Source: an uncultured Anaerolineales bacterium
GTDB taxonomy: Bacteria; Chloroflexota; Anaerolineae; B4-G1; SLSP01
Assembly: GCA_964496595.1 (NCBI GenBank)
Contig: CAZCAI010000001.1
Span: 22,514 to 86,513, forward strand
DNA: 64,000 nucleotides
Direction of reading: 5' to 3'
Positions 2,686 to 51,015 of this stretch are shown here, piece after piece (the stretch's first letter is position 1; every line of letters starts with the position of its first letter). The notes below the pieces were generated by a model. That model was not told the origin of the DNA. It searched no databases and saw only the letters and a list, made by a program, of their open reading frames with translations. A program made the translations under genes and the position numbers.

Positions 2686-5600
2686 TCATTCCGCTTCGAT
2701 AGGCAGCAGTAGGATAAAGGTCGAGCCTTTTCCCACCTCACTTTCGACTAAAATCTGTCCGTCGTGTGCTTCAATTATACCATAGCTGATAGACAGCCCT
2801 AATCCAGAACCGTGGGGCTTGGTCGTGAAGAACGGCTCAAAGAGGCGATCCTGTGTCTCCTTCGTCATCCCGACGCCCGTGTCGGTGAACTCGATGCGCA
2901 CCCTCCCGTTCTCTTGGGCGGTGCGGAGGATGAGCGTGCCGCCGCTGGGCATCGCGTCGATAGCGTTGAGCACCAGGTTCAGGATGACCTGTTTGAGATG
3001 CGCCGCGTTGGCCGGAATGGTCGGGAGCCCCTCGGCCCAGTGCTTCTCGATGGCCACATCGCTGTGTTGGAGTTGCTTGCCGGAAAGTTCCAATACACTT
3101 CCTAAGACGGCGTGGATATCGATCTCGTCGAGTTCCTCCCGCGCCGGGCGGTAGAAATCGCGAATGCGACGCACGATGGCCGCGATGCGTTCGATCTCAT
3201 CCTCCGCAATGCCCAAATAGCGTTGTAACTTTTCTGGCCGTTGCTGATCACCGATCTCCTCATCGGCTAATGTGAGACAGCCCTGAATCGATTGGAGCGG
3301 ATTGTTGATCTCGTGGGAGATCGAGGCGATCAGCCGGCCCAGCGCGCTCATCTTCTCGCTCTGGATAAGCTTGGCCTGTGTGGATCGCAACGCCTCGATC
3401 TGCTCGATCTGCTTTTGATAGAGGCGCGCGTTTTCCAGAGAGATCGCCGCCGAACTGCTAAAGGCCTTGAGAATCTCCAAATCGTGCGCGTTGAAGGCCC
3501 CATGAATCTTGTTGATCACCTCGATGACGCCGATGCCCTGTCCCTTGACCGTCAGCGGGACGGCGATCAGCGATTCGGTCGTCATGCCGGTCACCTCGTC
3601 GATGCCCCCATAAAAGTCCTGATGCTCCTGCGCGTTGGTGATCAGAATTGGCTCCTGCGCCTGCATCACCTGCCCCGCGATGCCCTCCGTGGCCGAAAGG
3701 CGATGGCCGATCAATATCTGGCAATCGGGATTCGCCAGCGCTGAGAAGACCAGCTCATCTGTTTCGGGATCATAGAGCATCACGGAAGCGTCCTCCGTCT
3801 CCAGCAGGACGTTGACTTCGCGGATTACCTGTTTGAGCACCGTATCCAAATCCAAATTGGAGGCCATCGCGTGGGTGGCGGTGTTGAGCGCGGCCAATTC
3901 GCGCGCGTTGCGCTGGATTTTAGCGTAGAGCCGGGCGTTCTCCATCGCCACGGCGGTCTGATCGGCCAGCGTTTGGAGCAGTTGTTGGTCGGCGAGGGAG
4001 AAGTGCGCGCGCGCCTCGTGTTCCGCGTTGATGATGCCCAATACCCGCCCCTCAAACTTGATTGGGACGCATAGCTCGGAGAGATACCTCGATTCCTTCT
4101 CAAAAGGAGCCTGGTAACGCGGGTCTTGGGATGTGTCTGGGACGTTGACCGTGCGGCCCTGGCTGACGGCCGCTGCGCAGATGCTGGTTTCGTCCTCGAT
4201 GGAGATGCGCTGTGTGGGAGTGATGGTAAACTCTCCATCGATGATGTGGAAGCGTTTGATTAGCTCCCGTTTTTGTGCATCCACGACGCCAAACCCGGCC
4301 AGGGAGGCATCGATGACCTGGGCTGCGGCTTGCAACGTGCGCTTGACCAATGCCTGCTCATCCCGCAGCAATGTCATCTCCTGGCCCAACTGATGGATGG
4401 CTGCCAGTCGCTCGGCCAGGCGCTTGCGCTCGGTGATGTCGATCATCACACCGCGTAACTTGACGGGCTTGCCATCCTCCACAATCACGCTCGCGATGTC
4501 GCGCAACCAGACGATGTTGCCTTTTGCATCGATCATCCGATATTCGAACTCGTGATCCTGTAGTTGACGGGTCGCCTTCGCGCAGAATTCGATGCTCTCC
4601 TTGCGATCCTCCTCGTGAATATGCGACGGCCAGAAATCCGGCTCCTCCGTCCAGCGCTCGAGGGGATAGCCCAACATCTCCTCGGCCTGCGGGCTGACGA
4701 AGGTGAATCGTTGCGTCGCCGCATCCGCCTCCCACACGATGCCGTCGATGGTATTGACAAGCCCGGCGTATTGTTGCTGGGATTGGCGCAGCGCCTCTTC
4801 CGCGCGTTTGCGCTCGATGACGCTGGCCAGTGTGTGCGCCGCCGAATTCAGGAACTCGATCTCATGTTCCTTACGCTGGTGATCCGGCTCTAAATAGAGC
4901 GTCAGAACGCCCAGCGGCGTCTCGCCGGAGAGGATGGGGACGCAATAATGGCCGTGCGGCGCTGTCAGTATATCGGGGCCGGAGATTTTGTGGCGCTCAT
5001 CTAAGTTGCCGGCAAAGATCATACGCTTCTGGGCGACAGCTTGCCCGCACAGACATTCGCCGATGCTGAGCTTCTGGCAACCCATCCGTAACTCCACCTC
5101 GAAGCCGTGCGACGCTTTGAGCGCAAGCGTTTGCCCATGCCCGTTCTCGTCTGTGAGGAAGATGGCGCCCTTGGGCAGGATGGGCAGCCACGAGATGCTC
5201 AGGATGTGTTCCAACGCCTGACTCAACTGCTCGTCGAGCGAGGCTTCGGGTGTGTTTACCGAGATCCGCAGCAGGGCGTTGAGCGCGCTTTGGTGATTAT
5301 GGCTGATTTGCAATTCACGCTCGGCGCGCATCCGCTCAGCGATCTGGGACTCCAATTGCTCATTGGCCTCCGATAGCTCCGCCGTGCGCTGCTGAACGCG
5401 CACCTCCAGCTCATCGTGCGCGCGACGCAGCGCCGCCTGGGCCTCGCGCAGTTCGCGCTTGAGGCGCAGGCGCTCCTTGGCGTGGCGCAGCGCCGCGTTG
5501 AGCGTCGATTGCTCCACCGGCTTAGGGATGAAATCGGAGGCGCCCTCGCGCAGCGCCTCGATGGCCATCTCCATATCGCCGTGGCCGGTGACCAGGATTA

Positions 5601-10714: not shown

Positions 10715-11740
10715 TCAATCCGCTGATGTCTTACCCAGCAGCCGCTTTTTGATCGCGTCGGGGACGTTGCCGCTGGCCTCCAAGATGCGCAGCGTCTCTT
10801 CGGGTGTAGGCGGCGGCTCCGAGGGCGAGGCGATCAGATCGTCGGCCCCGGCGGATGTGCTCTCCGGCGTCTCCGAAGCGCCGGCCAGCCAGAGCAGCAC
10901 GTCGGTGGGTGTGGCGGCGACGTGGATGTGAGCGGGGAGGGCACGTGGCTCCTCGCTGTGGATGAGCAGCGTGGGACGACGTAGTTTCTCGTTCCGCCGG
11001 ATGCTGGCCAGGTCGTGGCCGAGGCAGCGCGCGGCTGCCGCTTCGGCGGTCTGGTGGAGGATCGGCTCCCAGGCGGGATTGCTCGGCGTCTGGGGCGGCA
11101 GCGGCGTGGCCAGGACGAGCCGTTCGTTTGCCAGATAGGCGCGCTCCTGCTTCGAGAGCGAGACCTGTTCCAGGCCCGCGTAGGTGAAAAGTAGAACCTC
11201 GCCGGCGGTGGCGCGCATCGCGTCCAACAACAGCGCCGCCTGCTCGCTGCCGTGGAAGGCGGCGGGCAGATACTCCTCGCCCAGCACGATGCCCAGCGTT
11301 TCTTGCAGCAGTTCGCGCGTCGCCTCATCGGCGGTATCCAGGGGAGCGGGCGGCAGATAGAGGATCGGGCGCTGAAGTGGGGCGCGCGCGCCGCGATAGA
11401 AGAGCAGCGCGGGCCGGTGGCTGAGCGGCAGATCGCGCAGCCCGCCGGGATAGAGCGCTTCATCCCAACCCAGGGCGTCTGGTGCTTTGGAGGAGAACGA
11501 CGCCGGTGGGCGCAGTTTCCGCGCCTCCTGGGGCGTCAATCCCAGCGAGGAGGCTTCCTGTGGCGAGCGCGCCAGGACATCCTCCAACGATAAATCGCGC
11601 TTCTGCCAATCGGCCAAGAGGGTCTTGGCCCGTTGCGTCGCGAGGTTGCTCTCAAAAAGGAACCAATACCAGAGCGTGATATTTCGCTTTTCTTCCTCCG
11701 GGGCTTGCTCCATCTCTGTGGCTTCTTCTGAAGGTAACAT
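10715..11740 (-). CDS. DprA/Smf-like protein. The N-terminal DprA-like region is present but the Rossmann GSR motifs are degenerate.
   Basis: N-terminal segment (LATQRAKTLLADWQ...GWDEALYPGGLRDLPLSHRPALLFYRGA) resembles the DprA SAM-like domain plus the start of the Rossmann domain. Downstream lacks GSR/SGlA motifs. Lies in an operon with dtd and acpS. Confidence 0.35.
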   Translation of the reverse strand: MLPSEEATEMEQAPEEEKRNITLWYWFLFESNLATQRAKTLLADWQKRDLSLEDVLARSPQEASSLGLTPQEARKLRPPASFSSKAPDALGWDEALYPGGLRDLPLSHRPALLFYRGARAPLQRPILYLPPAPLDTADEATRELLQETLGIVLGEEYLPAAFHGSEQAALLLDAMRATAGEVLLFTYAGLEQVSLSKQERAYLANERLVLATPLPPQTPSNPAWEPILHQTAEAAAARCLGHDLASIRRNEKLRRPTLLIHSEEPRALPAHIHVAATPTDVLLWLAGASETPESTSAGADDLIASPSEPPPTPEETLRILEASGNVPDAIKKRLLGKTSAD

Positions 11741-12189
11741 TACGCCGAGGCCTCCTTCTCCAGAAGGATCGTCACCGGGCCGTCGTTGACCAGCTCGACG
11801 GTCATGTAGGCTTGGAAGACGCCCGACTCGACGGGGACATTTTCCTTTTGGATCACGGCGATGAAATGCTCGACCAGCGGCTCGGCGACCTCCGGCGGCG
11901 CCGCGTGCGCGAACGAGGGCCGGAAGCCGCGTCGGGGATCGCCGTAGAGGGTGAATTGTGAGACGACTAGTATCCGGCCTTCAATATCCTTGACCGAGAG
12001 ATTCATCTTACCCTCGTCATCGGGGAAGATGCGGAGATTGGCGGTCTTGTGCGCCAGCCAGCGCGCCTCTTCTTCAGTATCGCCCTCGCGGACGCCTAAC
12101 AGTACCAGCAGGCCATCATCGATCTCCCCGACGGTCTCGCCCTCGGCGGCGACGGATGCGCGGGTCACTCGTTGCACTACGGCTCGCAT
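11740..12189 (-). CDS. dtd: D-aminoacyl-tRNA deacylase.
   Basis: MRAVVQRV...GLLVLLGV...SQFTLYGD...RPSF...NDGPVT signature. AAAGGAGAA RBS upstream of the ATG at 12189. The ORF-track start at 12240 is upstream of the RBS. Confidence 0.9.
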
Positions 12190-12207: not shown

Positions 12208-12305
12208 AACCTTGCGAAGGTTCCAGATGACTATGCACACCAGAGGAGCTGGCGGTCAGGACATGAAGCTTCTGGGACGCGATAGTTTCTAACCTTCGCA
12301 AGGGT
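12208..12305. repeat. Repeat family 1, copy 1. A ~98-bp element bounded by 15-bp inverted hairpin motifs (AACCTTGCGAAGGTT ... AACCTTCGCAAGGGT). Candidate REP/MITE-like element.
   Basis: Terminal motifs at 12208-12222 and 12291-12305 are reverse complements. Each is itself a 6-bp-stem hairpin. Lies between the acpS stop and the dtd RBS. Confidence 0.7.
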
Positions 12306-12310
12306 CGCGT

Positions 12311-12688
12311 TTATGACATCGCGACGACAAACGCGATGGCGAAGTCGCCATCGTGGCTCAGGCTGATGGCCCATTCGGTCAGGCCTTGGCGTTGGGCCAA
12401 TTCCTCGGCGTGCTCGTGGAGGATCACGTAGGGCTTGCCGCTGCGCTCGTTCAGCACCTCGATCTCCTGCCAGCCGACGCCCAGCGGCGAGAGCATCCGC
12501 ATTCCCACGCCGAGGGCCTTGGCCGTGGCTTCCTTGCCGGCGAAACGGGCGGCCAACTCGGCGGGGCGCTCGCGGCTGTACATTACCTCGGCGGGCGTGA
12601 AGACGCGCTCCAAAAAGCGCGGCCCGAAGCGCTCCAACGTGCGCGCGATGCGCGAGACTGCGATGAGATCGACGCCGGTGGCTAACAT
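12311..12688 (-). CDS. acpS: Holo-[acyl-carrier-protein] synthase (4'-phosphopantetheinyl transferase).
   Basis: MLATGVDLIAVSRI...FTPAE...GKEATAKALG...WQEIEV...LSLSHDGDFAIAFVV. The ATG at 12688 sits 4 nt after the upstream stop. Confidence 0.85.
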   Translation of the reverse strand: MLATGVDLIAVSRIARTLERFGPRFLERVFTPAEVMYSRERPAELAARFAGKEATAKALGVGMRMLSPLGVGWQEIEVLNERSGKPYVILHEHAEELAQRQGLTEWAISLSHDGDFAIAFVVAMS

Positions 12689-12692
12689 TGCC

Positions 12693-14012
12693 TTATGATG
12701 CTGGTGTCTCCGGCATCGGCGGCCCGGCGATGGCCAGCGCGAAGTTCTCTGGATCGAGCCATCGTTGCGCGGCGGCCTGGACATCCTCGGCGGTGATGGC
12801 CGTGATGATGTCGCGATAGCGCTGGAGGTAATCCAGGCCCAGTTGGTAGCGCTCGATGTTGATCAGCGACTGGGCGACGCCCTCGTTGGTCTCCAGTTGG
12901 AGCGGCAGGCTCCCGGTGAGGAAGGATTTGCTGTCGTTGAGTTCCTCCTTGGGGACGCGCTCCTCGCGGATGCGACGCAGCTCCTCCTGGATCAGCGTGA
13001 CCGCGCGATCCAAGTTCATCGGGTTGACGCCAGCGATCACGCGCCATGGGCCGGGGCCTTTGCCGCCCTCGATGTGGCTGTAAGCGTAGTAAGCCAGTCC
13101 ATTCTCCTCGCGCACTTTCTTGCCCAAACGGCCATACATCCCAAAAATGCCCAGGATGGTGTTGGTTACCCCGCACGCGATGAAATCGGGATGGAGGCGG
13201 GGCGGGCCGGGCCAGCCCAGCACAAGGTTGCTTTGCATCTTATCCGGGATGATCATCTGTCTTTCGCGGCGCTCGGTGATCGCGGGTACGTTGGGCATAG
13301 GGACGCGCGCCGGGCGGCTGTGCTCCCAATCGCCGAAAGTTTCCCGCACGATGTCCAGCGCTTCCTTGGGCTTCACTGCGCCGACGATGACCAACGTCAG
13401 CCCGTCGGGCGCGAAGTAGCGGCGATGAAAATCGACCAGATTCTCGCGCTGGATGCGCGCGACGGTATCGGTGTAGCCGGTGAGGCTGTGGTGATAGGGG
13501 TGATTGGCGGGATAGGCCAGCTCGTGGAAGGTGCGCGCGGCCATGCGACTGGTGCTATCACGCCGCTCCTGAATGTCGGTGAGGATTTCGGCGCGTACTT
13601 TCTCGACGTGCTTTTTGGGGAAAGCGGGGCGGCGCAGCAGATCGCCGATGAGGTCCATCAGTAGGGGCAGCGAGGAGGCCAGGCCCTTGGCGCTGAAGGA
13701 GCTGATGTGCGCGCCGGCGCTCAACCCAAAGCCCGCGCCGATGGCCTCCACCGCCTCATACAGATCCTCGAAGGAGCGGCGCTGTGTGCCGCGCTCCATC
13801 ATATCCAACGTGAAGCTCGTCAGACCGTGCAGCTCGGTGGGTTCGTCCTGCGCGCCGGCCTCGACGTAGCCGCTGACCACCACCGCCGGGCTGGCGAAGT
13901 TCTCGCGCGCCAGCACGGTGATGCCGTTGGGCAGCGTCTCTCGCAGGGTGTCATCGGGGCCGGGTAAAGCGTGCGCGGATTGGCGCTGGCGTTGATATTG
14001 TCTGTTGTCCAT
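12693..14012 (-). CDS. M16-family (pitrilysin-like) peptidase, non-catalytic subunit (no HxxEH).
   Basis: M16 fold signatures, but the HxxEH position reads LTSFTLDMMERGT. Paired with the active M16 gene upstream. Confidence 0.8.
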   Translation of the reverse strand: MDNRQYQRQRQSAHALPGPDDTLRETLPNGITVLARENFASPAVVVSGYVEAGAQDEPTELHGLTSFTLDMMERGTQRRSFEDLYEAVEAIGAGFGLSAGAHISSFSAKGLASSLPLLMDLIGDLLRRPAFPKKHVEKVRAEILTDIQERRDSTSRMAARTFHELAYPANHPYHHSLTGYTDTVARIQRENLVDFHRRYFAPDGLTLVIVGAVKPKEALDIVRETFGDWEHSRPARVPMPNVPAITERRERQMIIPDKMQSNLVLGWPGPPRLHPDFIACGVTNTILGIFGMYGRLGKKVREENGLAYYAYSHIEGGKGPGPWRVIAGVNPMNLDRAVTLIQEELRRIREERVPKEELNDSKSFLTGSLPLQLETNEGVAQSLINIERYQLGLDYLQRYRDIITAITAEDVQAAAQRWLDPENFALAIAGPPMPETPAS

Positions 14013-20100: not shown

Positions 20101-20659
20101 GGCCGAGGCGCCGGACTATTTGCATCCCCGCGCGGTCTACGGTTACTTTCCGGTGCAATCCCAGGGCAACGACGTGCTGCTCTACGATTCGCAGCATCCG
20201 AAGGCGCGGTGCGAGATCGCGCGGCTGAACTTCCCCCGGCGGCCGCGCGGGGAGCGCTGGGTCAGCGTGGCCGACTACGTCGCGCCGGCGGCTGGCGAGG
20301 CCATCGACGTGGTCGCGATGCAGGTCGTCACGGTTGGCGCGGGGGCGACGGAGCGCTACGGCGCGTTGGATGCGGCGGGCGAGCACAGCGCGGCGTATTT
20401 CGTCCACGGGCTGGCGGCGGAGCTGGCCGAGACCACGGCGGAATGGATGCACCAACGCATCCGCCAAGAGCTGGGATTGGCCGCGCGCCAGGGCCGGCGC
20501 TACTCGTGGGGCTATCCCGCCTGCCCGGATCTGCAGGCGCATCGGATCGTCTTTGATCTGCTGCCGGCGGAGCGCGCGCTGGGGATGCAACTCTCATCCG
20601 CCGGGCAATTGATCCCGGAGCACAGCACGGCGGCGTTTGTCGTGCATAGTGATCGATGA
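17162..20659 (+). CDS. metH: Cobalamin-dependent methionine synthase.
   Basis: 1165 aa. Hcy S-methyltransferase domain, pterin-binding domain, B12-binding DxHxxG (DVHDIGKN), C-terminal AdoMet reactivation domain. Confidence 0.9.
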   Translation: MDEVMNTMDEIIPWTNRRYLDAVADHVVLFDGATGTELAKYGPGPADFGGERTAGLMEMLLFHRPEVVAQVHATYFEAGAEVVETNTFRGNRVSLAEFGVADRALEINRRAAEIARQAADRVTADSGRPRFVAGAMGPTGKLPSLEKMERMEEDVTFDEIATVYAEQSRGLLEGGVDLLLLETQQDLLELKAAIQGIWRTFRALNQRVPIQAQITLDVHGRMLTGPSVEAALATLAALPVDVIGLNCSTGPEEMRGAIRRLLALTQHPVSVLPNAGMPESVDGRAVYHMAAEPFADALATFVAWGVRIVGGCCGTGPEHIRQIASALTDVDIPQPRPVSLASYPVPLVSLPYVASNVEAVALHQEPRPLLVGERVNTQGSRKARRLILAEQYDALVALAESQVASGAHVLDVCVALTERADEITTMQRVVKLLTLNSSAPLMIDTTDLAVMRAALATYPGRAIINSVHLEAGEGRARRILALARDFGAAVVALTIDEQGMAKTAERKMAIVERLYHLAVDEMGLPPHAMIFDPLTFTLATGDADSAGAAVATLTALEQIKARYPQALINLGVSNVSYGLTPRARHVLNSVFLYRAVEAGLDMAIVNPAQITPYPEIAPEVRALAEDVIFNRSPSALQDYIAYFADQEETDELAVDESAALPPHEQLYQAILHRRREGVEALVDATLEEEEMAPLAVLNDVLLPAMKKVGERFGAGELILPFVLQSADVMKAAVAQLEPHLESTQGVSKGTIVLATVFGDVHDIGKNLVRTILENNGYAVHDLGKQVPMTEIVDAAVERRADAIGLSALLVATSRQMALVVEELHRRGLQIPVLVGGAAINADFAQRIAQCDAGEIYRGGVFYCEDAFEALQVLENIVLFTPPPPPEDHDHEHERAVSAPSAECATCGTACALSALQSGPDTIPAPPFWGYRAEMDVPWAELAELLDHKRLFRVGWGAKSATGEQWEAVRADFEARLVRMWAEAPDYLHPRAVYGYFPVQSQGNDVLLYDSQHPKARCEIARLNFPRRPRGERWVSVADYVAPAAGEAIDVVAMQVVTVGAGATERYGALDAAGEHSAAYFVHGLAAELAETTAEWMHQRIRQELGLAARQGRRYSWGYPACPDLQAHRIVFDLLPAERALGMQLSSAGQLIPEHSTAAFVVHSDR

Positions 20660-20755
20660 ACCTTGCGAAGGTTGCCAAGAGCCAGGTAAGCCAGGGCATC
20701 GGCGCCGGGCAGTGGATGCCGGGCTTTGCGGGTTTTGCGGAACCTTCGCAAGGGT
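20659..20755. repeat. Repeat family 1, copy 2 (97 bp). It overlaps the last base of the metH stop codon.
   Basis: AACCTTGCGAAGGTT at 20659-20673. AACCTTCGCAAGGGT at 20741-20755. Confidence 0.7.
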
Positions 20756-20789
20756 GAGGTAAACTACATAATTTTAACCTAGGGAGGCG

Positions 20790-22061
20790 TTGATGAAGGT
20801 TTTGGTGTTGGGTACGGGTAAGATGGGGCAGGGTGTGGCGTGGGATTTGGCGCACAACCCGGCGGTAGAGACGGTCGGGATGGTGGACATCCGTCGCAGT
20901 GCATTGGAGCGGGCGAAAAACAAGCTCCAGCACGAGTTTAAGAAGAAAGGACAAGTCGCCGAAAATGAAAAATTGGTCTTTCATCCCTTGGATATTACTG
21001 ATTTTGACGAATCGGCGCCGTTATTTGAAAAGTACGACGTTGGCGTGATCACGGTGTGCAATCGCCGTTGTAGCTACAAGGCCATCGAGGCGGCGATTTT
21101 GGCGGGTCTGGATGTGGTGGATATTCTGGAAGAGTATCATCGCCGCCCGGACGATCACGAAATCGAAGGGCTGGAGGCGCCGGAGGGGATGTCGCTTCGC
21201 GAGTATGGCGATTGGTTGCACGAGCGCGCTATCGAAGCGGGCGTGCTGGTGTTGGATGGGATGGGCTTCGCGCCGGGGTTGAGCAACATCACCTTGGGCG
21301 AGGGCATCCGCAAGATGGACGAGACGACATCGGCCGTCGCCAGAGTGGGGGGCATCCCCTGCAAGGTCTCGGCGCGGCGCCACCCGTTGCGCTATGTGAT
21401 TACCTGGGCCTTCTCGCACGTCCTGCGCGAGTATATGGTCAAGGTCAAGATCCGCCGCGATGGCGAGGTGGCCGTGGTCGATGCTGTGACGGATCTGGAG
21501 CGCTTCCGTTTCCAGCAATTTGGCAAGGATGAGGAACTGGTGTGCGCGATCACGCCGGGGATGCCCAGCTTTATCTACAGCCGGCCGGAGTTGCAGTCGT
21601 TCGCGGAGAAGACCATCCGCTGGCCGGGTCACTGGGAGGGTATCCTGACGCTCAAAGAATGTGGGCTGTTGAATTTGGAGCCGGTGGAATTCGAGGGGAT
21701 GATGATCAGCCCGCGCGAGTTCTTCAACGCGCTCGTGGAACCGAAGTTGCAGCCTATCGAAGGGGATCGCGATGTGTGCGTGATGTGGAACTCGGCGGTT
21801 GGCTCTCAGAACGGGCGTCCGATGCGCGTGGATTACTATCTGTGGGAGGAATCCGACGACGCGAACTCCGCGATGGCGCGCGTGACGGCTTTCCCGGCGG
21901 CGATTGCGGCGGTGATGATCGGCCAGGGCAAGATCGCGCGGACGGGCATTGTCCCGCCGGAGGATGCCATCGGCGGGGATGATGGTGCGTTGTACATGGA
22001 ATTCTTAGGCGAGTTGGAGAAGCGCGATATAGACATCTTGGAGATGGTATCGGCGGCGTGA
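20790..22061 (+). CDS. Saccharopine dehydrogenase-family protein (NADP-binding domain plus C-terminal domain).
   Basis: N-terminal Rossmann domain VLVLGTGKMGQGVAWDL. 423 aa with Sacchrp_dh-like layout. GGGAGG RBS. Confidence 0.7.
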   Translation: MMKVLVLGTGKMGQGVAWDLAHNPAVETVGMVDIRRSALERAKNKLQHEFKKKGQVAENEKLVFHPLDITDFDESAPLFEKYDVGVITVCNRRCSYKAIEAAILAGLDVVDILEEYHRRPDDHEIEGLEAPEGMSLREYGDWLHERAIEAGVLVLDGMGFAPGLSNITLGEGIRKMDETTSAVARVGGIPCKVSARRHPLRYVITWAFSHVLREYMVKVKIRRDGEVAVVDAVTDLERFRFQQFGKDEELVCAITPGMPSFIYSRPELQSFAEKTIRWPGHWEGILTLKECGLLNLEPVEFEGMMISPREFFNALVEPKLQPIEGDRDVCVMWNSAVGSQNGRPMRVDYYLWEESDDANSAMARVTAFPAAIAAVMIGQGKIARTGIVPPEDAIGGDDGALYMEFLGELEKRDIDILEMVSAA

Positions 22062-22101: not shown

Positions 22102-22200
22102 AACCCTTGCGAAGGTTAGTCGAGAGCCGTTCAAACTGAGTTTTTCTGTCAAAGACAAGGTACTTGAGGCCTAAAATCCTCATGTAACCTTCGCAAGGGT
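22102..22200. repeat. Repeat family 1, copy 3 (99 bp), between convergent gene ends.
   Basis: ACCCTTGCGAAGGTT at 22103-22117. AACCTTCGCAAGGGT at 22186-22200. Confidence 0.7.
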
Positions 22201-22288
22201 AAGGTGGAAAATGCGAGGCCCTCAGCACATTCGCTGAGGGCCTCGCTGCGTTATGGGATGAGATTCGATTGGATTTGGGCCGAGTGTC

Positions 22289-25200
22289 TCATCCCTCTCT
22301 TGTGACGAGCGGCAGGTAGATGATCTCCCCGTCGCTTTCCTCGCTGCTGGCGCCGAATACGGCGAACTCGCTGAGATGGCAGACCGGCGCGACCAGGAGA
22401 TTGCGATCTACATCTGGCGTGTAGCTGGGAACAGGCGGCCCGCAGGCGTTAGCCACATCGTCCCAATCGCTGAGGCTCTCGTTCCAGTAGGTGAGGCGCA
22501 AGGTGGTCTCGTCCTCGATGCCGGCGTTCATCCAATCCTCGTCACGATAGTGAATCGTAACGGTGATCTGTCCGCCGATTTGAGGCGATGCCTCCAGAGC
22601 GAACCCCCGACCAATAAAACCAAGACCGGAGGTGAACGGATGGGTGAGGGTGATATGCGGCGTGTATGTGAAGACCGTCTCCTCGCTCAATGTGCCGCTG
22701 GGGATCTCTATCGTCGTCGTCACCCCGGTCGTGTCGGTGAAGATCGTCGTCCCACCCGACGGGCCGACCGTGAACGCCTCCTGGATAAGAATCGTGTGCG
22801 TGCCGAAGGCGCTCCCGGCGTCATTGCTGGCGGTCACCGTGATGGTCTTGGGGCCGGGGTTGGCCCAGGTGCGATTCTTGAGGACGATGCTCCGTCCCAG
22901 GTTGTAGGGGCCTAGGATCCCCTCGTGGCCTGTGTATTTGACGTAGTAGGTGAGCGGCGTCGTGACATCGAGGGGATCGACCGTGATGGTGAAGGTGTAA
23001 AACTCGTTGGTTCTGCCGATTGTTGGCCCATCAATGTTGACGGCGGTTGGTGCGCCGGGCGCCGGGGCCTCACTGATGGTGATCGTGTGCGTGCCGATGG
23101 CGCTGCCGAGGTCGTTGCTGGCCGTCACTGTGATGGTCTTGGGCCCGGGCGTGGGCCAGGTGCGATTTTTCAGGATGATGCTTCGACCCAGCGTGGCTTC
23201 CAGAGGTGCGCCTTGGAGATCCGTGTAATCGATGACGTAGGTGATCGGTGTCGTGACGTCGATGGGATCGACCGTGATTGTGAATGTGTAAGATTCATTG
23301 GTATAGCCGACGGTGGGGCCACTGATGTTCACGCTGCTGGGCGCCGTCGGGACGGGCGTGCCGCTGCCGGAGAGATTGACCTCGGTGCGGATGCCACGTC
23401 CCTGCCAGGTGGGTGTGCCGCTGTCGGGCGTCAACGCGAGCGGCGTGGTGCTCAGGGGAAGAAAAGCCTTGAAGGTGAGGGCGTCGCCCACATTCGCGCC
23501 TTCGTCGCTCGTAGTCGTCGCGTCGTCGCCGTAGGCGTGCAGGAAGCCGTACTGCCCGGCTTCGGTCAGGATAAAATCGCCGATGTAGACGCTGTCGGGA
23601 TCGTAGACGGCCACAATCGTGCCCACAGGCGCAGGGCTGCCATCGATGGTGATCACGCCCCAAAAGTCAGACCACTCATCGGTCGCGACGTAGGGCATTG
23701 TGACCTCTAGATTGACCTCTTTCTGGTCTACGCCTGAGTTCCACACCGTTGATTTGGACGGCGTAGCCAAGCGCCCATTGATCGTAAAGCGAACTTCATC
23801 CCCATCCGCTATGCCTTCATCCCCCGGCGTGTTGGGATCGTCCACGTAGGTGTGGAGGAAACCGTAATATGGCGGCGTATGCACGGTAAACGCGCCGGCG
23901 ACAATGCCATCTGGATCGTAGGCGACCACGCGGGCGTTGCAAGGTGCAGAAAAGCCACTGAGGGATGCAACGCCGTAGAAGTCAACCCACTCAGTGGTCG
24001 GCGTAAAAAAATATGAGCTTGCTGCTCCTTGTGATATATCAGCGGATGATGGGGGGATGGCCGGTCGTCTGACCGGTGTGTCGGCGCCTGGATAGGTCAG
24101 GATCGGTGCGCTGGCCCCCTCGCTGATCTTGATCCAGTAGGCATACCCCGGCTCCATCATCGTCAGGTCGCTGAATTGCGGCTGGCCGGGCATATAGCTC
24201 TTGGCGCCGCCATCGAAGCTGCGGACGAGGTCGTAATCGCCGCTGATGCTCTCCAACGCCTGGGTGACGACCATCGTGATATCGGGCAGGTAGCTGACCA
24301 GATTCCAGCCCTCGTAGAGTTGGATGGACGTATCATCGCGCGCCGGTTCGTAGGTCAAGGTCAGCGTCTGGGTCGTCGCCGCTGTGATGTGAATCCAGTA
24401 GCCGTGCGCCACATCGATGGTGGTCAGATCGCTGGCGTCGGGATTGCCGGGATCGAAGGTCTTGCCGCCGCCGGATGGCCCGCCATCGAAGGCCAACACC
24501 AGATCGTACTGCCCCGCCAGGCTGCTCAACACCTGGGTGATCGCCGGATCGGGCGGGGTGACGTCAATCGAAAAGAGGTTCCAGCCGGGAGCTAAATCGT
24601 GGATAAACGTAGCGTCGGGCGCGTAGGCCGGGGACATCAACGTGGTCGTGCCGGAGAGATAATCGCCGATAACGTAATCATCCTGCGTGGTGGCCGCGAC
24701 GCGGATGCCGTGATTGGCCGGCAATGGCGCATCTAACGTGGCGGTGAAGCGCGCCGTGCCCGTCACGTTATCGATCACGGCGATGGTCAGCAATTCTAAG
24801 GCGTCCTGTTCATCGTCCAGGTCATCCAGATACAGCTCGACCAGGCAGTTGGGGCAGTCGCTGCCTGCCTCGGTCTCGCCGACGACCTGCGTGCCATCGA
24901 TGCTCACGATGCGCGGCGGATCAAACAATCGCAACGCTTCGGGGATGGCGGGGCCGTATTCGATCACCTTGGTAGTGCTGTCGCGCACGATGTTGTTGCG
25001 CAGCGTGAATTGGCGGGCGAGCGGCGAGCTATCGTTGACGAAGATCGCGCCCTCCGTAGGGTCATCACTCTCAGCGACGAAAAAGCTGGTTTTCGCATTG
25101 ACGATGGTGTTGGTCATCACCTGAATGCCCTGGCCGGTGACGAAGATCCCCTGGCCGCAGGCGCCGACCTCATTGCCCAGCCCATCGATGCCGATGGTGT

Positions 25201-26308
25201 TGTGCTCGAAAAGATTGTCGGCGCCCGCCGTCCATATCGCGGGCGGTGCGGTTTCGGTCGGGGAGTGGGGGCGATGGATGCCCGCGAGGGTGTTGTAGCG
25301 GACGATGTTGTTGCTGCCGCTGGAGAACTCGATCCCCGTCCCGCCGTACCACTGCGCGGGGTTGTAGAGGTTGGAGGCGACGCACGTGAGCCGATCCGCA
25401 GGGACGCTCGTATCGCCCCGCGTGCCGATGTAGTTGTATTGGATGATGTTGTTGTCCCCCTGCACAGAGACCCCGCTGTTGGAGCCGGTGACAATCGTGC
25501 CGCTGATCGTGTTGCCATCGCCCTGGATGGTGATGCCGCCGCCGGCCAGGGTAATATCGGGGTTCGTGCCGGGGACGATCTCCGTGCCGGCGGCGTTCAG
25601 GCCCACCCAAACCTCTTCGACCAGGTTGCTGCCGCCCACGCCGGAGACATCGTTCAAGAAGATACCGCCGCCGCCCTGGAAGGCCAGATTGCGAATGGTG
25701 TTGTGATTGACGCCCACCAGGTCAAAGGAATGCGTGCTGCTGATGACAATTTTGGGATCGCCGGTCGTGCGCCCGCCGGGCTGCGTGTCGCCATCGATGG
25801 TGATGTAACTATCGGGGTTGGCGGGATTGTCAAGATCCCCCACCACGATGGCCTCGCCGCCGGAACTGCTGGAATAGTCGGCGTCCATTACGATGGCCCA
25901 CGTTTGCGTGTCGGCGTGATAGTGTGTATCGGTCAATGGGAGGTTGAATTTGATGAGAATCGGGCGATCCGCCATCGGGCGATGGCTGGCCTCCACTAAG
26001 GCGCGCCGGAGGTTACATTTGCCATCACTGGCTGCGAAAAATGGACTTTGTGTGAAATAGCACGTCCTGGTCTGCGTCTCGCCGCTGGTGTCCTCCGTCG
26101 TGTTGATGGTGATGACGGTGGTGTAGTTCAGCGGCGCGCGGGCGCTGATGGGAGCGGAGAAAGGCTCCATCAGCGGCGTCAGGTCACGCTCTTGCGTCTC
26201 GATTGGATCGAGCCGCATGGCGTCGACGGCATCGTACCTCGTCGCCACGGCGCTCGATAGGAGCAAGAGCAGAGAGATAAGCGTTATCTGCCAGATTCTG
26301 CGTTTCAT
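22289..26308 (-). CDS. Very large secreted multidomain protein with right-handed beta-helix repeats, tandem PKD-like domains and internally duplicated modules. Probably a cell-surface or adhesin-like protein.
   Basis: 1339 aa. Signal peptide (MKRRIWQITLISLLLLLSSAVA). PbH1-like NxxGxxxxG repeats. Two ~95-aa PKD-like repeats (...TFTITVDP.DVTTP.TY...KTITVTASND.GSA.GTHTI). Other duplicated ~70-aa modules. GGAGGGG RBS. Confidence 0.85.
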   Translation of the reverse strand: MKRRIWQITLISLLLLLSSAVATRYDAVDAMRLDPIETQERDLTPLMEPFSAPISARAPLNYTTVITINTTEDTSGETQTRTCYFTQSPFFAASDGKCNLRRALVEASHRPMADRPILIKFNLPLTDTHYHADTQTWAIVMDADYSSSSGGEAIVVGDLDNPANPDSYITIDGDTQPGGRTTGDPKIVISSTHSFDLVGVNHNTIRNLAFQGGGGIFLNDVSGVGGSNLVEEVWVGLNAAGTEIVPGTNPDITLAGGGITIQGDGNTISGTIVTGSNSGVSVQGDNNIIQYNYIGTRGDTSVPADRLTCVASNLYNPAQWYGGTGIEFSSGSNNIVRYNTLAGIHRPHSPTETAPPAIWTAGADNLFEHNTIGIDGLGNEVGACGQGIFVTGQGIQVMTNTIVNAKTSFFVAESDDPTEGAIFVNDSSPLARQFTLRNNIVRDSTTKVIEYGPAIPEALRLFDPPRIVSIDGTQVVGETEAGSDCPNCLVELYLDDLDDEQDALELLTIAVIDNVTGTARFTATLDAPLPANHGIRVAATTQDDYVIGDYLSGTTTLMSPAYAPDATFIHDLAPGWNLFSIDVTPPDPAITQVLSSLAGQYDLVLAFDGGPSGGGKTFDPGNPDASDLTTIDVAHGYWIHITAATTQTLTLTYEPARDDTSIQLYEGWNLVSYLPDITMVVTQALESISGDYDLVRSFDGGAKSYMPGQPQFSDLTMMEPGYAYWIKISEGASAPILTYPGADTPVRRPAIPPSSADISQGAASSYFFTPTTEWVDFYGVASLSGFSAPCNARVVAYDPDGIVAGAFTVHTPPYYGFLHTYVDDPNTPGDEGIADGDEVRFTINGRLATPSKSTVWNSGVDQKEVNLEVTMPYVATDEWSDFWGVITIDGSPAPVGTIVAVYDPDSVYIGDFILTEAGQYGFLHAYGDDATTTSDEGANVGDALTFKAFLPLSTTPLALTPDSGTPTWQGRGIRTEVNLSGSGTPVPTAPSSVNISGPTVGYTNESYTFTITVDPIDVTTPITYVIDYTDLQGAPLEATLGRSIILKNRTWPTPGPKTITVTASNDLGSAIGTHTITISEAPAPGAPTAVNIDGPTIGRTNEFYTFTITVDPLDVTTPLTYYVKYTGHEGILGPYNLGRSIVLKNRTWANPGPKTITVTASNDAGSAFGTHTILIQEAFTVGPSGGTTIFTDTTGVTTTIEIPSGTLSEETVFTYTPHITLTHPFTSGLGFIGRGFALEASPQIGGQITVTIHYRDEDWMNAGIEDETTLRLTYWNESLSDWDDVANACGPPVPSYTPDVDRNLLVAPVCHLSEFAVFGASSEESDGEIIYLPLVTREG

Positions 26309-26320
26309 CGTAAACCCCTC

Positions 26321-26374
26321 CTTGGTTTCCTTGGTTTCCTTGGTTTCCTTGGTTTCCTTGGTTTCCTTGGTTTC
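26321..26374. repeat. Perfect 9-bp tandem repeat x6 (CTTGGTTTC on the + strand; GAAACCAAG on the gene strand) immediately upstream of the RBS of the giant secreted-protein gene.
   Basis: Read directly from the sequence. Ends 4 nt before GGAGGGG and 13 nt before the start codon. Confidence 0.8.
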
Positions 26375-26392
26375 CTGAAAAAACTGTGAGAT

Positions 26393-26629
26393 TCAAGTAC
26401 CCGTTTGAGTTTCATTGGCTTCACCCCCGTGCGACTTTAGTTCATCGTTATCCTCCTCTGTATCGATTTGGATTTGGAGAAACGCGCACAGATCTTTTAG
26501 GCTAGCGAACGCTTGGCGCTCCCCGTTGAACGGATTTTCGATGGAGGCCCGCCAGACTGCATCGCTTTCGTTGCCCGTTCGCCAGATGCGCAGCAGATAG
26601 GATAGATAGTCTCTCCGTTGTCTTGTCAT
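26393..26629 (-). CDS. Small hypothetical protein (78 aa), co-directional with and upstream of the giant secreted-protein gene.
   Basis: ORF with GC3 bias. N-terminal basic segment (YLSYLLRIWRTG...WRASIENPFNGERQAFASLKDLCAFL) and acidic tail. Confidence 0.5.
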   Translation of the reverse strand: MTRQRRDYLSYLLRIWRTGNESDAVWRASIENPFNGERQAFASLKDLCAFLQIQIDTEEDNDELKSHGGEANETQTGT

Positions 26630-26661
26630 ATTCGTTACCCGTCAATTTCATCATAATGATC

Positions 26662-26683
26662 GAACGTCAGGGAAACGTCAGGG
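26662..26683. promoter_or_regulatory. Two direct repeats with 11-bp periodicity (GAACGTCAGGG AAACGTCAGGG). Candidate SARP-binding heptamer repeats that replace the -35 of the minus-strand promoter for the 26629 operon.
   Basis: Read directly from the sequence. On the minus strand the repeats lie ~6 bp upstream of a TATGAT -10-like hexamer. The adjacent divergent gene encodes a SARP-family regulator. Confidence 0.4.
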
Positions 26684-26785
26684 GCACGGCTTTTTTGCTA
26701 CGGAGGGCAACTATCGATATAATGAGGATAGGGTGTTATACCTGAGTCGTCGCCAGAGAAATATTGTCCAAATATAAAGTGAACT

Positions 26786-29700
26786 ATGGCTCAACTTTCG
26801 ATAAGTTCTTTAGGTCCCTTCCGCGCCACGCTGGATGGGGAACCGATCACCAGCTTTGAATCCAACAAAGTGCGGGCGTTGTTGGTCTATCTCGCGATGG
26901 AATCCGACTATCCTCACAGCCGGGAGACGTTGGCGGGATTTTTCTGGCCTGAGCAATCCGAATCTAACGCCCGGCACAACCTGCGCCAGGCGCTCTGCAA
27001 CCTGCGCCAGGTTATTCGTGATCGCGACGCGGACATCCCCTTCCTGCACGTCACGCGCCGGACCGTGCAGTTCGCTCCCGATAGTGACTATTGGCTGGAT
27101 GTGGCTATGTTCAGCGACTATATCGGGGCCAGCGAGGCGCATGCTCATTATCGTCTGGAGACGTGTGGGTCTTGTCGCGAGCAGCTAGAGAAGGCGGCCG
27201 AACTCTATCGGGGCAGCTTTTTGGAGGATCTCTTCGTGGAGGGGAGTATTCCATTCGAGGATTGGGCCTTGCTCCTACGAGAGCGATTTCATCGCCTGGT
27301 GATCGACGCGCTCTATCATCTGGCCCGTCATTACGAGCGCCGCCGAATGTATGACCGGGCGCGACGCTACGCTCGGCGGCAGGTGGAGTTGGAGCCTTGG
27401 CGCGAGGAAGCGCATCAGCAGTTGATGCGTCTGCTGGCTCACAGCGGGGAGCGCAGCGCCGCGCTGACCCAGTACGACCTCTGCCGCCGCATCTTGGCGA
27501 AGGAACTAAACGTCGCGCCGCACCCGGAGACGACGGCGCTCTATGAGCGCATTCGAGCGGCGGGCAGCGCCAGCCCCCACAATTTACCGCCTCAGTTGAC
27601 CCCCTTGATCGGGCGGGAAGAAGAGTTGAGCGAGATTGCGGAGCGGCTGGCCGATCCGGCGTGCCGCCTGTTGACCCTGACCGGGCTGGGCGGTGTCGGA
27701 AAGACGCGATTGGCCCTGCAAGCAGCTCAGGAACACATTGGGGCTTTTTTGCACGGCGTCTACTTTGTCCCGTTGGCGACTTTAAACTCGACCACGCTCA
27801 TTGTCCCTACGATGGTCGATGCGCTTGGATTTTCTCTCTCCGGCGAGCAGCCCCCTGAGACGCAACTCCTGAACTATTTGCGGGAAAAAGAGATGCTCCT
27901 GGTGCTGGATAGCTTTGAGCATCTTCTGGAGGGCGCCGATGTGCTTTTGGACATCCTCAGACACGCCCCCGCCGTCAAGCTGATCGTCACATCTCAGGAG
28001 CGGTTGAATTTTCGGGCGGAGTGGATCTTTCAGGTGGATGGATTGTCTTTGCCAGACAAAGATGTCGTCGCAGGCGCTGAGGCCTCCGGCGCGGTGCGAC
28101 TTTTCTTCGAGCGCGCCCGGCGCGTGGCCCCGGGTTTTTCAATATCGGATGCGACGATGCCGGCGGCGATTCGCATCTGCCAGTTGGTGGGCGGCATCCC
28201 CTTGGGCATCGAACTGGCCGCCGCCTCTCTCCTCACCCGCTCGTGCGAGCAAATTGCCTTGGAGATCGAACGCAACATCGATATATTGACCACGATGATG
28301 CGGGATGCGCCTGAACGCCATCGTAGTATGCGCGCGGTTTTCGAGCATGCCTGGAATTTGCTTGCCCCAGAGGAACAGCAGATCCTGCGGAAATTGACAG
28401 TCTTTCGCGACGGCTTCGAGGCGCAGGCCGCTCGGAGCGTGGCTCACGTATCTCCTTGGCGCCTGACGTCGCTGGTGAGCAAATCTCTCCTGCGGAAGAA
28501 TTCCGTCGGACGGTATGCAATTCACGAGCTTATCAAACACTTTGCCGGAGAGAAATTAGATGAACATCCGCCCGAAAAAGAGATGGCCGGGGAGCGTCAC
28601 GGCGAATACTACACATCATTTCTTCATCAGAGAGAAGGAGCGTTGCAGGCCGGACAACAGCATGAGGCTTTAGACGAGATCAGCACCGAAATTGAGAACG
28701 TCCGGGCTGCCTGGCGATGGGCCGTGGCGCACAAGGAGCTTGGCGCTATCGATGCGGGGTTGGAAAGCCTCTACTACTTCTATTGGGCGCGGAATTGGTT
28801 TCGCGAGGGCCAGGAGATCTTTGGGCAGGCGGAACGCGCCGTTCTGAGTGCGGGAGAAAAAGATGCGCTGCTTCTGGCGAGGATTTGGACGCGCCAGGCG
28901 GAGTTCGATGCCTGGCTCACTCACTACGACGCAGCGGAGAGGCGATTGCGGAAGAGTATCCAGATGTGTCGCTCGCTTCAAGCGCGGCGCGAATTGGCGT
29001 TCGCGCTTGAGATGTGGGGCCGAATCGAATACTGGCAGGGGAAATATACATCATCACGGGATCATGTGCAGGAAAGCCTGGCGCTTTATCGTCAGGTTGA
29101 TGACAAGGTCGGCGTAGCGCAGGCGCTCAACAGTTTAGCCAATGTGCTCTGTGATCTAGATGCCGATTATGATCAAGCCCAAGTGCTCTACGAAGAGAGT
29201 CTGTCAATCGCGCGCGAGATCGGCGATCAGTTTGGCGTGGCCAAGGCGCTCGTCAATCTGGGGGCATTGATGCAGGAGTTGGGGGCTTATGAAGAGGCGA
29301 AACGATTTTATGAGGAGAGTCTGACGCTTTATCGTAAAATCGATTATCGGCATGGAATCTCGGCGTCGCTCAGCTATGTGGGGCAGGCGACCAGTTTGCT
29401 GGGCGAGCATGCGTTAGCTATAGAATTGCTCCAGGAGAGTCTGAACCTCAATCGAGAGACGGGCGACCGCCACGCGATGGCGGAGCGGCTAAAGCAGTTG
29501 GGCAGCGTCGCGTGCCGGATGGGGGTTTATGAGCAAGCGAAGGCGTACTTTGATCAGGCCTTGAGATTGGCAGTCGCGATCCATTCGCATCAGGTCATTT
29601 TAGATGTCTTGATTAGCATGGCTGATCTGTTTCATCAATCCCAGGAATTCCAGGAATCCCAGGACAAAGGGAAAAAGGCGTATGCCGCCTTGGCGTATGC

Positions 29701-29890
29701 CTTGGAGCTTTTGGCCTGTGTCAAGCACCAGGCCACGTGTGGACAAGAGTGTCAGGATCGCGCCGCCGGCTTGCTCCCGGCATTGGTATCCGCGCTTCCC
29801 CCCGCGATGGTGGCCGCGTGCTGGCAGCGGGGACAGGCTAAGACGTTGGACGCGATGGTGACGGAAATCCTGGCGGATCATCTGGTGTGA
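26786..29890 (+). CDS. SARP/AfsR-like STAND regulator: OmpR-type wHTH, BTAD, NB-ARC ATPase and TPR repeats.
   Basis: N-terminal wHTH (LGPFRATLDGEPI...NKVRALLVYLA). BTAD (DYWLDV...LYRGSFLED). Walker A GLGGVGKTRLA. C-terminal TPR-like repeats (ALNSLANV..., AKALVNLGAL...). Confidence 0.85.
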   Translation: MAQLSISSLGPFRATLDGEPITSFESNKVRALLVYLAMESDYPHSRETLAGFFWPEQSESNARHNLRQALCNLRQVIRDRDADIPFLHVTRRTVQFAPDSDYWLDVAMFSDYIGASEAHAHYRLETCGSCREQLEKAAELYRGSFLEDLFVEGSIPFEDWALLLRERFHRLVIDALYHLARHYERRRMYDRARRYARRQVELEPWREEAHQQLMRLLAHSGERSAALTQYDLCRRILAKELNVAPHPETTALYERIRAAGSASPHNLPPQLTPLIGREEELSEIAERLADPACRLLTLTGLGGVGKTRLALQAAQEHIGAFLHGVYFVPLATLNSTTLIVPTMVDALGFSLSGEQPPETQLLNYLREKEMLLVLDSFEHLLEGADVLLDILRHAPAVKLIVTSQERLNFRAEWIFQVDGLSLPDKDVVAGAEASGAVRLFFERARRVAPGFSISDATMPAAIRICQLVGGIPLGIELAAASLLTRSCEQIALEIERNIDILTTMMRDAPERHRSMRAVFEHAWNLLAPEEQQILRKLTVFRDGFEAQAARSVAHVSPWRLTSLVSKSLLRKNSVGRYAIHELIKHFAGEKLDEHPPEKEMAGERHGEYYTSFLHQREGALQAGQQHEALDEISTEIENVRAAWRWAVAHKELGAIDAGLESLYYFYWARNWFREGQEIFGQAERAVLSAGEKDALLLARIWTRQAEFDAWLTHYDAAERRLRKSIQMCRSLQARRELAFALEMWGRIEYWQGKYTSSRDHVQESLALYRQVDDKVGVAQALNSLANVLCDLDADYDQAQVLYEESLSIAREIGDQFGVAKALVNLGALMQELGAYEEAKRFYEESLTLYRKIDYRHGISASLSYVGQATSLLGEHALAIELLQESLNLNRETGDRHAMAERLKQLGSVACRMGVYEQAKAYFDQALRLAVAIHSHQVILDVLISMADLFHQSQEFQESQDKGKKAYAALAYALELLACVKHQATCGQECQDRAAGLLPALVSALPPAMVAACWQRGQAKTLDAMVTEILADHLV

Positions 29891-29949
29891 GGGGCGGGCC
29901 GCCATCCGGGAAGCTGATCAGCTTCCCGGATGGTCTGCCTGGTTGGGCG

Positions 29950-38002: not shown

Positions 38003-38217
38003 TCCTCGATGCCCACAGCCTCGGAGGTGAGGGCATTCTTAAATAATTCCGGCGTTGATTTCGCGTAGTCATAAAGCGATTTATGGAAAAAGGCTACTTC
38101 TTTGCTTTTCTGATTAAGGTAAAAATAGACTATGCGAAATAAACTGCCGCAGTACGGGCCTTATTTTGACCAGAGCCAGAGGTTGTCATTCCTTACCTTT
38201 GCGTTACAATCAATCGT

Positions 38218-50913: not shown

Positions 50914-51015
50914 AGTCTATTTTTACCTTATCAGAAAAGACAAAAAGAGCCGTTTTTCATCTCAGGTTCTGTGACTACGCGAAATATTACCTGGGAATAT
51001 AAATCCATACGCGAA

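Follow-up and report, generated by a model that had tools for sequence, protein, structure and literature searches.

Probable REPIN-type doublets of a RayT transposase system in an uncultured Anaerolineales bacterium and other Chloroflexota

In this study, we analysed three short inverted-repeat elements in a 64,000-nt stretch of genomic DNA from an uncultured Anaerolineales bacterium (GenBank assembly GCA_964496595.1, contig CAZCAI010000001.1, positions 22,514 to 86,513; hereafter the window). The elements are probably doublets of repetitive extragenic palindromic (REP) sequences of the REPIN (REP doublet forming a hairpin) type, belonging to a system of the REP-associated Y1/HUH tyrosine transposase RayT that is widespread in Anaerolineae and Chloroflexota. 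Their REP is a 15-nt palindrome of 6-3-6 design, A[C/A]CCTT-GCG-AAGGTT, and two such REPs stand inverted around a spacer of about 68 nt. The doublets are non-autonomous. We assign them to the REPIN class because of the repeat architecture, the predominance of the doublet over the single REP, a RayT gene flanked by exactly this REP, the clade-wide pattern of RayT genes with a REP of their own and two asymmetric junctions without target duplication. A REP-like or BIME-like (bacterial interspersed mosaic element) nature had already been proposed when the window was interpreted from its letters alone (hereafter the sequence-only reading), and the doublet architecture together with a RayT gene flanked by the same 15-mers bears this proposal out.

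Six exact 15-mer termini form three inverted-repeat units in the window, and a motif search returned them at precisely the positions first read from the sequence (starts 12208/12291, 20659/20741 and 22103/22186). Copy 1 (12208..12305, 98 bp) consists of the left REP AACCTTGCGAAGGTT at 12208-12222, a 68-nt core and the right REP AACCTTCGCAAGGGT at 12291-12305. Copy 2 (20659..20755, 97 bp) has its left REP at 20659-20673, a 67-nt core and its right REP at 20741-20755, and copy 3 (22103..22200, 98 bp) has the left REP ACCCTTGCGAAGGTT at 22103-22117, a 68-nt core and the right REP at 22186-22200. The left 15-mer is thus AACCTTGCGAAGGTT or ACCCTTGCGAAGGTT and the right one the reverse complement AACCTTCGCAAGGGT; no strand is assigned to any of the units. 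The paired 15-mers are separated by 68, 67 and 68 nt, so that the distance of 68-71 bp given in the sequence-only reading has to be corrected. When up to two mismatches were allowed, the 15-mer matched seven times in the window against 0.09 times expected from dinucleotide-preserving shuffles, none of which reached seven. Copies with one mismatch are missing from the window and matches with two or three mismatches occur at chance level; therefore, the window contains six perfect termini and no decayed ones. Neither a GTAG nor a CGTC tag was found in or adjoining the 15-mer. A GCGGTTTTCGCGG-like flanking motif, from which a composite unit had been suspected, is not enriched (seven matches in the window versus 4.2 expected) and is present in only one of 238 flanks of the family.

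All three copies are intergenic, and each lies just past a stop codon. According to Pfam assignments of the neighbouring genes, copy 1 occupies the spacer between acpS (12311-12784) and dtd (11740-12189), both on the minus strand; it follows the acpS stop and lies 18 nt upstream of the dtd start. The left REP of copy 2 overlaps the TGA stop of metH, and the element ends 37 nt upstream of a saccharopine-dehydrogenase-like gene (20793-22061). Copy 3 follows the latter gene and faces a convergent gene encoding a PKD-domain protein, so the saccharopine-dehydrogenase-like gene is bracketed by two doublets. The initial description of the elements as residents of gene 3' ends holds insofar as all of them follow stops; it is incomplete, since at sites 1 and 2 the element also separates two genes of the same direction. 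Gene callers place a 33-aa open reading frame (ORF; ATGAACCTTGCG..., MNLAKVAKSQ...) over the whole of site 2, beginning in the metH stop codon (window 20656-20757, with counterparts at L114 7249-7350 and L116 5085-5186, L numbers denoting the collected loci). Other copies of the element lack an equivalent frame, and we regard this ORF as probably spurious.

The family extends far beyond the window. The density in the window makes hundreds of copies per genome plausible, as the sequence-only reading had predicted. One genome per bacterial species was scanned with the pattern CCTTGCGAAGGTT-N55-85-AACCTTCGCAAGG. Among the matches listed, to which the locus, gap, terminus, intergenic and orientation results below refer, paired termini were found in at least 113 loci from at least 40 species-level assemblies, and the host labels of these loci are nearly all Chloroflexota, Anaerolineae, Anaerolineales or Caldilineae. 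Half of the 124 copies (62) have a gap of 68 nt, and most others one of 65-70 nt. Termini are mostly paired (127 left and 133 right termini versus 124 pairs), the exceptions being truncated copies, contig ends, a 35-nt short form and a few variants. What recurs is the doublet and not the REP by itself. The two bases beyond the 13-mer core, left free by the pattern used for the search, are conserved as well (A in 57, C in 50, G in 47 and T in 59 of 60). Crude ORF calling placed most copies between genes, without a preferred orientation with respect to the flanking genes (++ 22, -- 19, convergent 12, divergent 11). Tandem arrays of the doublet plus a short flank occur in L004 (108-bp period), L034 and L059. 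Neither the 15-mer motif nor REPINs in Anaerolineae are mentioned in the literature searched, and neither the short-loop nor the long doublet form was matched in IMG/VR viral contigs.

A candidate enzyme for this system came from RayT loci. No transposase recurs beside the elements: clustering of ORFs from the 113 listed loci gave only housekeeping paralogues, and there were no transposases among ORFs bracketed by two elements. A search of the collected loci with Escherichia coli RayT produced a single match, a Pfam Y1_Tnp gene in L013 (E = 3.5e-4). This gene was rejected as the partner of the doublets, as it is flanked by its own GTAG-tagged hairpins (GTGCCGGGGAGCTTTCTGAAGTCCCCGGCAC) and lies 1.3 kb from the element. 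It belongs to a Chloroflexota metagenome-assembled genome (MAG; 3446-3973, minus strand, flanks to 4170), carries the hairpin twice upstream and once downstream, and has two apparent frameshifts that are probably long-read errors. Together, gene and hairpins are a classical REP/RAYT pair, distinct from the 15-mer family. With the L013 protein as a handle, about 120 Chloroflexota-type RayT proteins (~193 aa) were gathered, 30 of which were aligned, and 80 loci (226 kb in all) were taken from metagenome contigs. The 13-mer cores are present in one of these 80 loci, L199, in four exact copies. Its RayT ORF encodes 185 aa with the HUH motif MPNHYHFLL and the tyrosine motif CRYIHLNP, has PF01797 recorded, and is 55-67% identical to proteins annotated as RayT. 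The upstream flank, ACCCTTGCGAAGGTT-CTG-AACCTTCGCAAGGGT, ends 19 nt before the ATG of the gene, and the inverted downstream flank, ACCCTTGCGAAGGTT-CAG-AACCTTCGCAAGGGT, starts 3 nt past its stop; both 15-mer pairs are 33-nt hairpins. The search for a cognate recombinase or transposase that had been proposed with the elements thus led to a Y1/HUH tyrosine transposase with the same 15-mers on both sides.

Loci of the L199 type were found in two further assemblies (L211 and L213), one of them with a variant downstream hairpin; the contigs that carry this gene are all short metagenome contigs. L211 (2468-2512) and L199 (1655-1692) encode an identical RayT protein and differ in this hairpin, one of the two having an extra ACCCTCC before the REP and a 5-nt loop AAGAG in place of CAG. 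This suggests that the RayT-flanking hairpin may turn over quickly. A word of at least 13 nt is common to both flanks in 57 of the 74 evaluable RayT loci. Most of these words are 15-mer doublets with the same 6-3-6 design and a different sequence, for example AGGTGCAACGCACTT-CCG-AAGTGCGTTGCACCT, AGGTGCCGGGCACTT-TCG-AAGTGCCCGGCACCT and ACCTTCCTGGAAGCT-GCG-AGCTTCCAGGAAGGT. One RayT with its own REP is thus the rule in this clade, and the 15-mer of the window is one REP variant of a large RayT/REP system.

Comparison with relatives provided evidence for gain or loss of the unit. The source population of the window is present in the Logan assemblies of SRR15425353 and SRR15425355, and close relatives include the MAGs GCA_964468735.1 and GCA_046541755.1. 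Site 2 has orthologues in L116 (neighbouring protein 93% identical) and L117 (91%). Both termini are intact there, about 25 nt of the core are replaced in L117, and both versions still fold. Site 3 is absent from L116, the relative with 93% protein identity. An exact prefix/suffix test of the alignment placed the missing segment at 22105..22196 (92 bp, no strand assigned), between ...CGCGGGAAC and GGGTAAGG... in the window. The junction ambiguity is zero, hence there is neither target duplication nor microhomology, and AC and GGGT, one at each side, are retained in the empty site of L116. The segment is apparently a mobile or excised unit. A second, independent filled/empty pair (L070 versus L019) differs by 91 bp. 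Written on the strand with ACCC to the left, both indels read ACCC[TTGCG...CGCAAG(G)]GT, and the empty sites read ACCC|GT. In both cases, target duplication and microhomology are lacking and 6 nt of the conserved ends are left behind. Slippage between direct repeats was rejected as the cause, since the junctions show no microhomology. The presence/absence comparison that the sequence-only reading had suggested therefore yielded two filled/empty pairs with a reproducible junction, and target-site duplications, for which it had also proposed to look, were found neither at any of the three window copies nor at the filled/empty junctions.

At site 1, close lineages do not permit a clean presence/absence comparison, because the acpS-dtd spacer holds three different palindromic elements in three of them. 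In L122 (7180-7262) and L124 (2933-3016) the spacer contains a second doublet family, ACCTTCCGGGAAGCT and AGCTTCCCGGAAGGT separated by 35 nt, with TAGTC on both sides; its core holds a degenerate copy of the REP of the first family (ATCCTTTGCAAGGAC), and 15-mers like this doublet flank RayT genes in L164, L170, L193 and L194. A third, ~190-nt inverted-repeat element (CAGCAGATTAAGCAGATGGAGCA ... TGCTCCATCTGCTGATTAAG) is found in the same spacer in L127 (3272-3475) and where L126 and L128 begin, and two contigs are broken within it. Metagenome assemblies are disrupted by these repeats, as in the case of L126 and L128, which end at the acpS-dtd site. Judged by these sequences, the spacer has evidently received palindromic repeats of several families.

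The cores of the elements were compared separately. Those of the window share no significant mutual similarity (p = 0.17-0.42), in agreement with the original impression that the internal sequences are unrelated. This does not hold for the family as a whole: mean pairwise identity of the family cores is 0.42 versus 0.28 in shuffles, a consensus core exists, and similarity to it persists in window core 2 (z = 3.1) and window core 3 (z = 3.9). No similarity to this consensus was detected for window core 1 (p = 0.26). A core length of exactly 68 nt is found in eight of the ten most consensus-like copies versus 10 of the 37 most diverged ones. As the spread of core length grows with core divergence, the constant length reflects descent and not a measuring mechanism; a length "ruler" or a looping constraint was rejected on these grounds. 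Site 1 folds as a 13-15-bp terminal stem that closes the core (z = -4.8), and the whole-element hairpin of site 2 reaches z = -5.8 to -6.0, the site 2 core alone reaching z = -2.6. RNAalifold analysis of 48 non-redundant copies supported only the outer 15-bp stem, in which position 2/97 covaries (C-G in 29 copies, A-T in six). In the long hairpin of the whole doublet, the 15-bp terminal stem is universal and the interior, site 2 excepted, generally has no structure beyond that of shuffles. Thus, the conserved structure is a 15-bp stem closing a largely unconstrained interior.

We infer how such units probably move. RayT would bind the REP hairpins in single-stranded DNA, cut 3' of ACCC at one end and 3' of CAAG(G) at the opposite end, and move the segment by a "peel and paste" route like that of IS200/IS605. 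In the window, the spacers have drifted to mutual unrelatedness, partly by block replacements, with the paired 15-bp stems staying intact. The three window copies are old insertions of a small parasitic repeat, and we found no evidence for a benefit of them to the host. If transcribed, the doublets are predicted to add a stable 15-bp stem to the acpS-dtd and metH-saccharopine-dehydrogenase transcripts.

Several observations weigh against an assignment to the REPIN class. Neither the window nor 128 other loci contain a cognate RayT when searched with E. coli RayT and a clade profile, the only match being the non-cognate gene of L013. The RayT flanked by these 15-mers belongs to a single lineage, and it was found neither in the genome of the window itself nor in contigs with a long doublet. 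Classical REPs carry a GTAG/CGTC tag (PMC3733652), which is missing from the REP described here. The filled/empty evidence amounts to two events, in which insertion and excision are not told apart. Core sequences alone do not exceed shuffles in self-complementarity (median z = -0.12, 12 of 124 below -2); unlike Pseudomonas REPINs, the Chloroflexota doublets thus generally have a spacer that is not self-complementary, and their hairpin is essentially the 15-bp stem. A REPIN origin also does not account for six perfect termini beside saturated cores. Finally, recent within-genome bursts of near-identical copies are largely explained not by RayT, but by an outer miniature inverted-repeat transposable element (MITE) of the IS66 type in which part of the family is nested.

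In other genomes, this larger unit encloses the doublet in 23 copies by a strict pattern; counted by flank words held in common, the number rises to as many as 41 of 118. Its outer inverted repeats are GTAAGCGTTCAG.../...CTGAACnnTTAC or GTAACTACTCAG.../...CTGAGTAGTTAC, starting with GTAAGCG or GTAACTAC, and perfect 8-bp direct repeats lie outside them in 15 of the 23 nested copies. A terminal repeat starting with GTAAGCG and an 8-bp duplication are a stated hallmark of the IS66 family (PMC11946415), of which an example has been described (PMC12888890). Nested copies occur in L005, L009, L023, L024, L032, L038, L040, L047, L062, L063, L085, L087, L089, L104 and others, mainly in the assemblies JAANWY01 and CAYTNQ01. 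They dominate the family consensus (core score 0.41 versus 0.09), and most near-identical "naked" pairs also share flank sequence. As near-identical copies within a genome are mostly nested in the MITE, RayT cannot be held responsible for a recent spread of the doublet. The suspicion of MITE-like elements voiced in the sequence-only reading is therefore justified for these genomes and not for the window, where neither outer repeats nor duplications surround the three copies. Potentially, the REP doublet is both a RayT substrate and a cargo of the IS66-type MITE, and doublets travel from genome to genome with the MITE or its parent IS66; we consider this dual role possible, yet rather doubtful.

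The nested copies also lend themselves to an explanation without any part for RayT, in which a DDE transposase spread a larger doublet-containing unit and the window copies are its decayed remnants. The IS66 signature of the outer shell, the dominance of nested copies in a consensus that window cores 2 and 3 weakly resemble, and the flank sequence shared by most near-identical naked pairs would all fit. However, the window copies have neither outer repeat nor duplication, both indel junctions lie inside the 15-mers and lack duplications, unlike the product of a DDE transposase, the nested form is concentrated in a few assemblies whereas bare doublets occur in about 40, and a RayT gene flanked by the 15-mers would be left unexplained. 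An origin as IS66-type remnants is therefore unlikely.

REPs of E. coli have secondary roles in their host. Such roles are mentioned in PMC3733652, and a role as host binding site or RNA hairpin may likewise have been acquired secondarily here. That the elements are primarily host-maintained functional sites, either paired operators for a dimeric protein (82-83 bp centre to centre) or RNA hairpins that end, process or stabilise transcripts, seems improbable to us. In favour of such a function are the six perfect termini beside cores that have diverged to randomness, the position of all three copies behind stop codons, the conservation of the 15-mers across many species, the covarying stem position 2/97 and a weak -35-like TTCGCA that the right REP of site 2 supplies 16 nt before CATAAT. 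But the promoter-like count does not exceed that of shuffles, by which a promoter was rejected, and intrinsic terminators were rejected as well: a T-tract follows none of the three copies, none was called as a terminator, and orientation relative to genes is unbiased. A structured RNA found no support in Rfam: at gathering thresholds the whole window was free of hits, and a search permitting E values up to 5 brought up nothing on the elements. Moreover, site 3 is missing in a relative with 93% protein identity, the three different palindromic elements in the site 1 spacer of close lineages indicate that no particular sequence is required there, and a length that spreads with divergence needs no spacing rule. 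The sequence-only reading had further considered integron attC-like sites, and the imperfect inverted repeats, the variable centre and a size in the attC range do recall them. Core sites of attC read RYYYAAC ... GTTRRRY. The ends of the elements, ACCCTTG ... CAAGGGT, match neither R'' nor R', and the elements lie between housekeeping genes (acpS/dtd, metH) and in no cassette array, the rest of the window not having been screened for intI. In addition, the indel junctions have zero ambiguity and contain no overlap dinucleotide or core, which speaks against conservative site-specific recombination, and the associated enzyme is a Y1/HUH transposase. Sites of an integron or of another tyrosine or serine recombinase are thus extremely improbable, and REPIN-type doublets of a RayT system remain the preferred interpretation.

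The window contains further repeats. At 29902..29933, with no strand assigned, lies a short-loop hairpin doublet (CCATCCGGGAAGCT-GATC-AGCTTCCCGGATGG) that has a perfect 15-bp stem and a REP of another, though related, type. Both of its arms have one mismatch to the "family 2" motif TTCCGGGAAGCT, and it does not belong to the 98-bp doublet family. Doublets like this one flank RayT genes in L164, L170, L193 and L194 and fill the acpS-dtd spacer in L122 and L124. The same hairpin forms the right edge of a 7.7-kb segment (22253-29939) that holds the 1339-aa PKD-domain gene (22289-26308) and is absent from L116 and L117, in which the saccharopine-dehydrogenase gene is directly followed by the counterpart of window position ~29940. 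The segment starts 56 bp past the site 3 element, just after a GC hairpin at 22213-22246. Within the PKD-domain gene, at 22776-23344, segments of ~125 nt recur with a 291-bp period and 75-82% identity; these are presumably tandem protein domains. Perfect 9-bp tandem repeats were found as TCCTTGGTT (about seven times, 26319-26381), immediately upstream of the start of this minus-strand gene at 26308, and as GCCGCCTAT (about five times, 42006-42053). Two minus-strand copies of the 13-mer CCTGGCGCAGGTT lie 21 nt from each other (26978-26990 and 26999-27011); this 13-mer is two mismatches away from the REP core and resembles the AACCTCCCGCAGGTT-type words that flank RayT genes in L180 and L183. 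Two AT-rich stretches of ~85 nt, at 38060-38144 and, inverted, at 50901-50990, lie 12.7 kb apart and share a 30-nt block with 97% identity (TAAGGTAAAAATAGACTATGCGAAATAAAC). Possible explanations are a common promoter or leader, or the two termini of a larger unit.

Almost all characterised REPIN-RAYT systems are from Proteobacteria. The elements described here extend the REP/RayT system to Anaerolineae, with a defined 15-nt REP, a defined junction ACCC|GT and a RayT clade whose members each have their own REP variant. This Chloroflexota clade is a natural matrix for studying the co-divergence of Y1 enzymes and their hairpin substrates. Noteworthy is its REP in three respects: it is a nested palindrome, it is conserved in many species, and it is also carried within an IS66-type MITE. 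In the current view, REPIN-RAYT systems are almost strictly vertical and REP sequences are lineage-specific. If the MITE does carry doublets between genomes, the presence of an identical 15-mer REP in at least 40 Chloroflexota species would be accounted for, and REPIN populations could be founded horizontally by doublets that hitch-hike in a cut-and-paste element. As regards the window alone, the finding is an ordinary one: three old passenger copies in intergenic DNA.

The REPINs of Pseudomonas fluorescens SBW25 offer a detailed comparison. Their REPs are offset by 71 bp, they form tandem clusters, and their excision is asymmetric and keeps about 6 bp of invariant sequence (Bertels & Rainey, 2011, PMC3116915). 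The Chloroflexota elements share with them the short palindromic REPs inverted around a spacer of ~70 nt, the doublet as the unit, the mostly extragenic location, the tandem clusters, conserved ends with a more variable spacer, a Y1/HUH RayT flanked by the REP and an asymmetric gain/loss unit that leaves about 6 nt of invariant sequence. They differ in a 15-nt REP that is a near-perfect 6-3-6 palindrome without GTAG/CGTC tag, in RayT-flanking copies that are perfect 33-nt hairpins with a 3-nt loop, in the copies that ride inside an IS66-type MITE and in the host phylum. Proteobacterial REPs are typically lineage-specific, unlike the REP described here, a single sequence common to at least 40 species-level Chloroflexota genomes. 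Abundant flanking 16-mers have been linked only to the proteobacterial RAYT Groups 2 and 3, and the presence of RAYTs in Caldilineae is on record (Bertels et al., 2017, PMC5581495).

Similarities also exist to the REP/BIME elements of E. coli and their transposase TnpA-REP (RayT, b0228). In both systems, REPs form inverted pairs around variable linkers and are located between genes, often behind stop codons, and the Y1 enzyme of Chloroflexota is detectably homologous to that of E. coli, as seen in the L013 match. However, the REPs of E. coli are imperfect palindromes of ~35 nt with a GTAG tag, and their linkers are of defined types. With IS200/IS605 elements and their PATE (palindrome-associated transposable element) derivatives, the doublets have in common the hairpin ends, the lack of a target-site duplication, a Y1/HUH enzyme and a fixed short sequence (ACCC) at one end, as expected for insertion 3' of a specific tetranucleotide. 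In contrast to IS200/IS605, the end hairpins are inverted instead of having the same orientation, a conserved GT follows the other end, and the enzyme is of the RayT type and encoded outside the element. A likeness to IS66-family MITEs is confined to the nested copies of other genomes with their GTAAGCG outer repeats and 8-bp duplications. Since the window copies possess neither feature, the IS66-type unit represents an outer shell and not the doublet itself.

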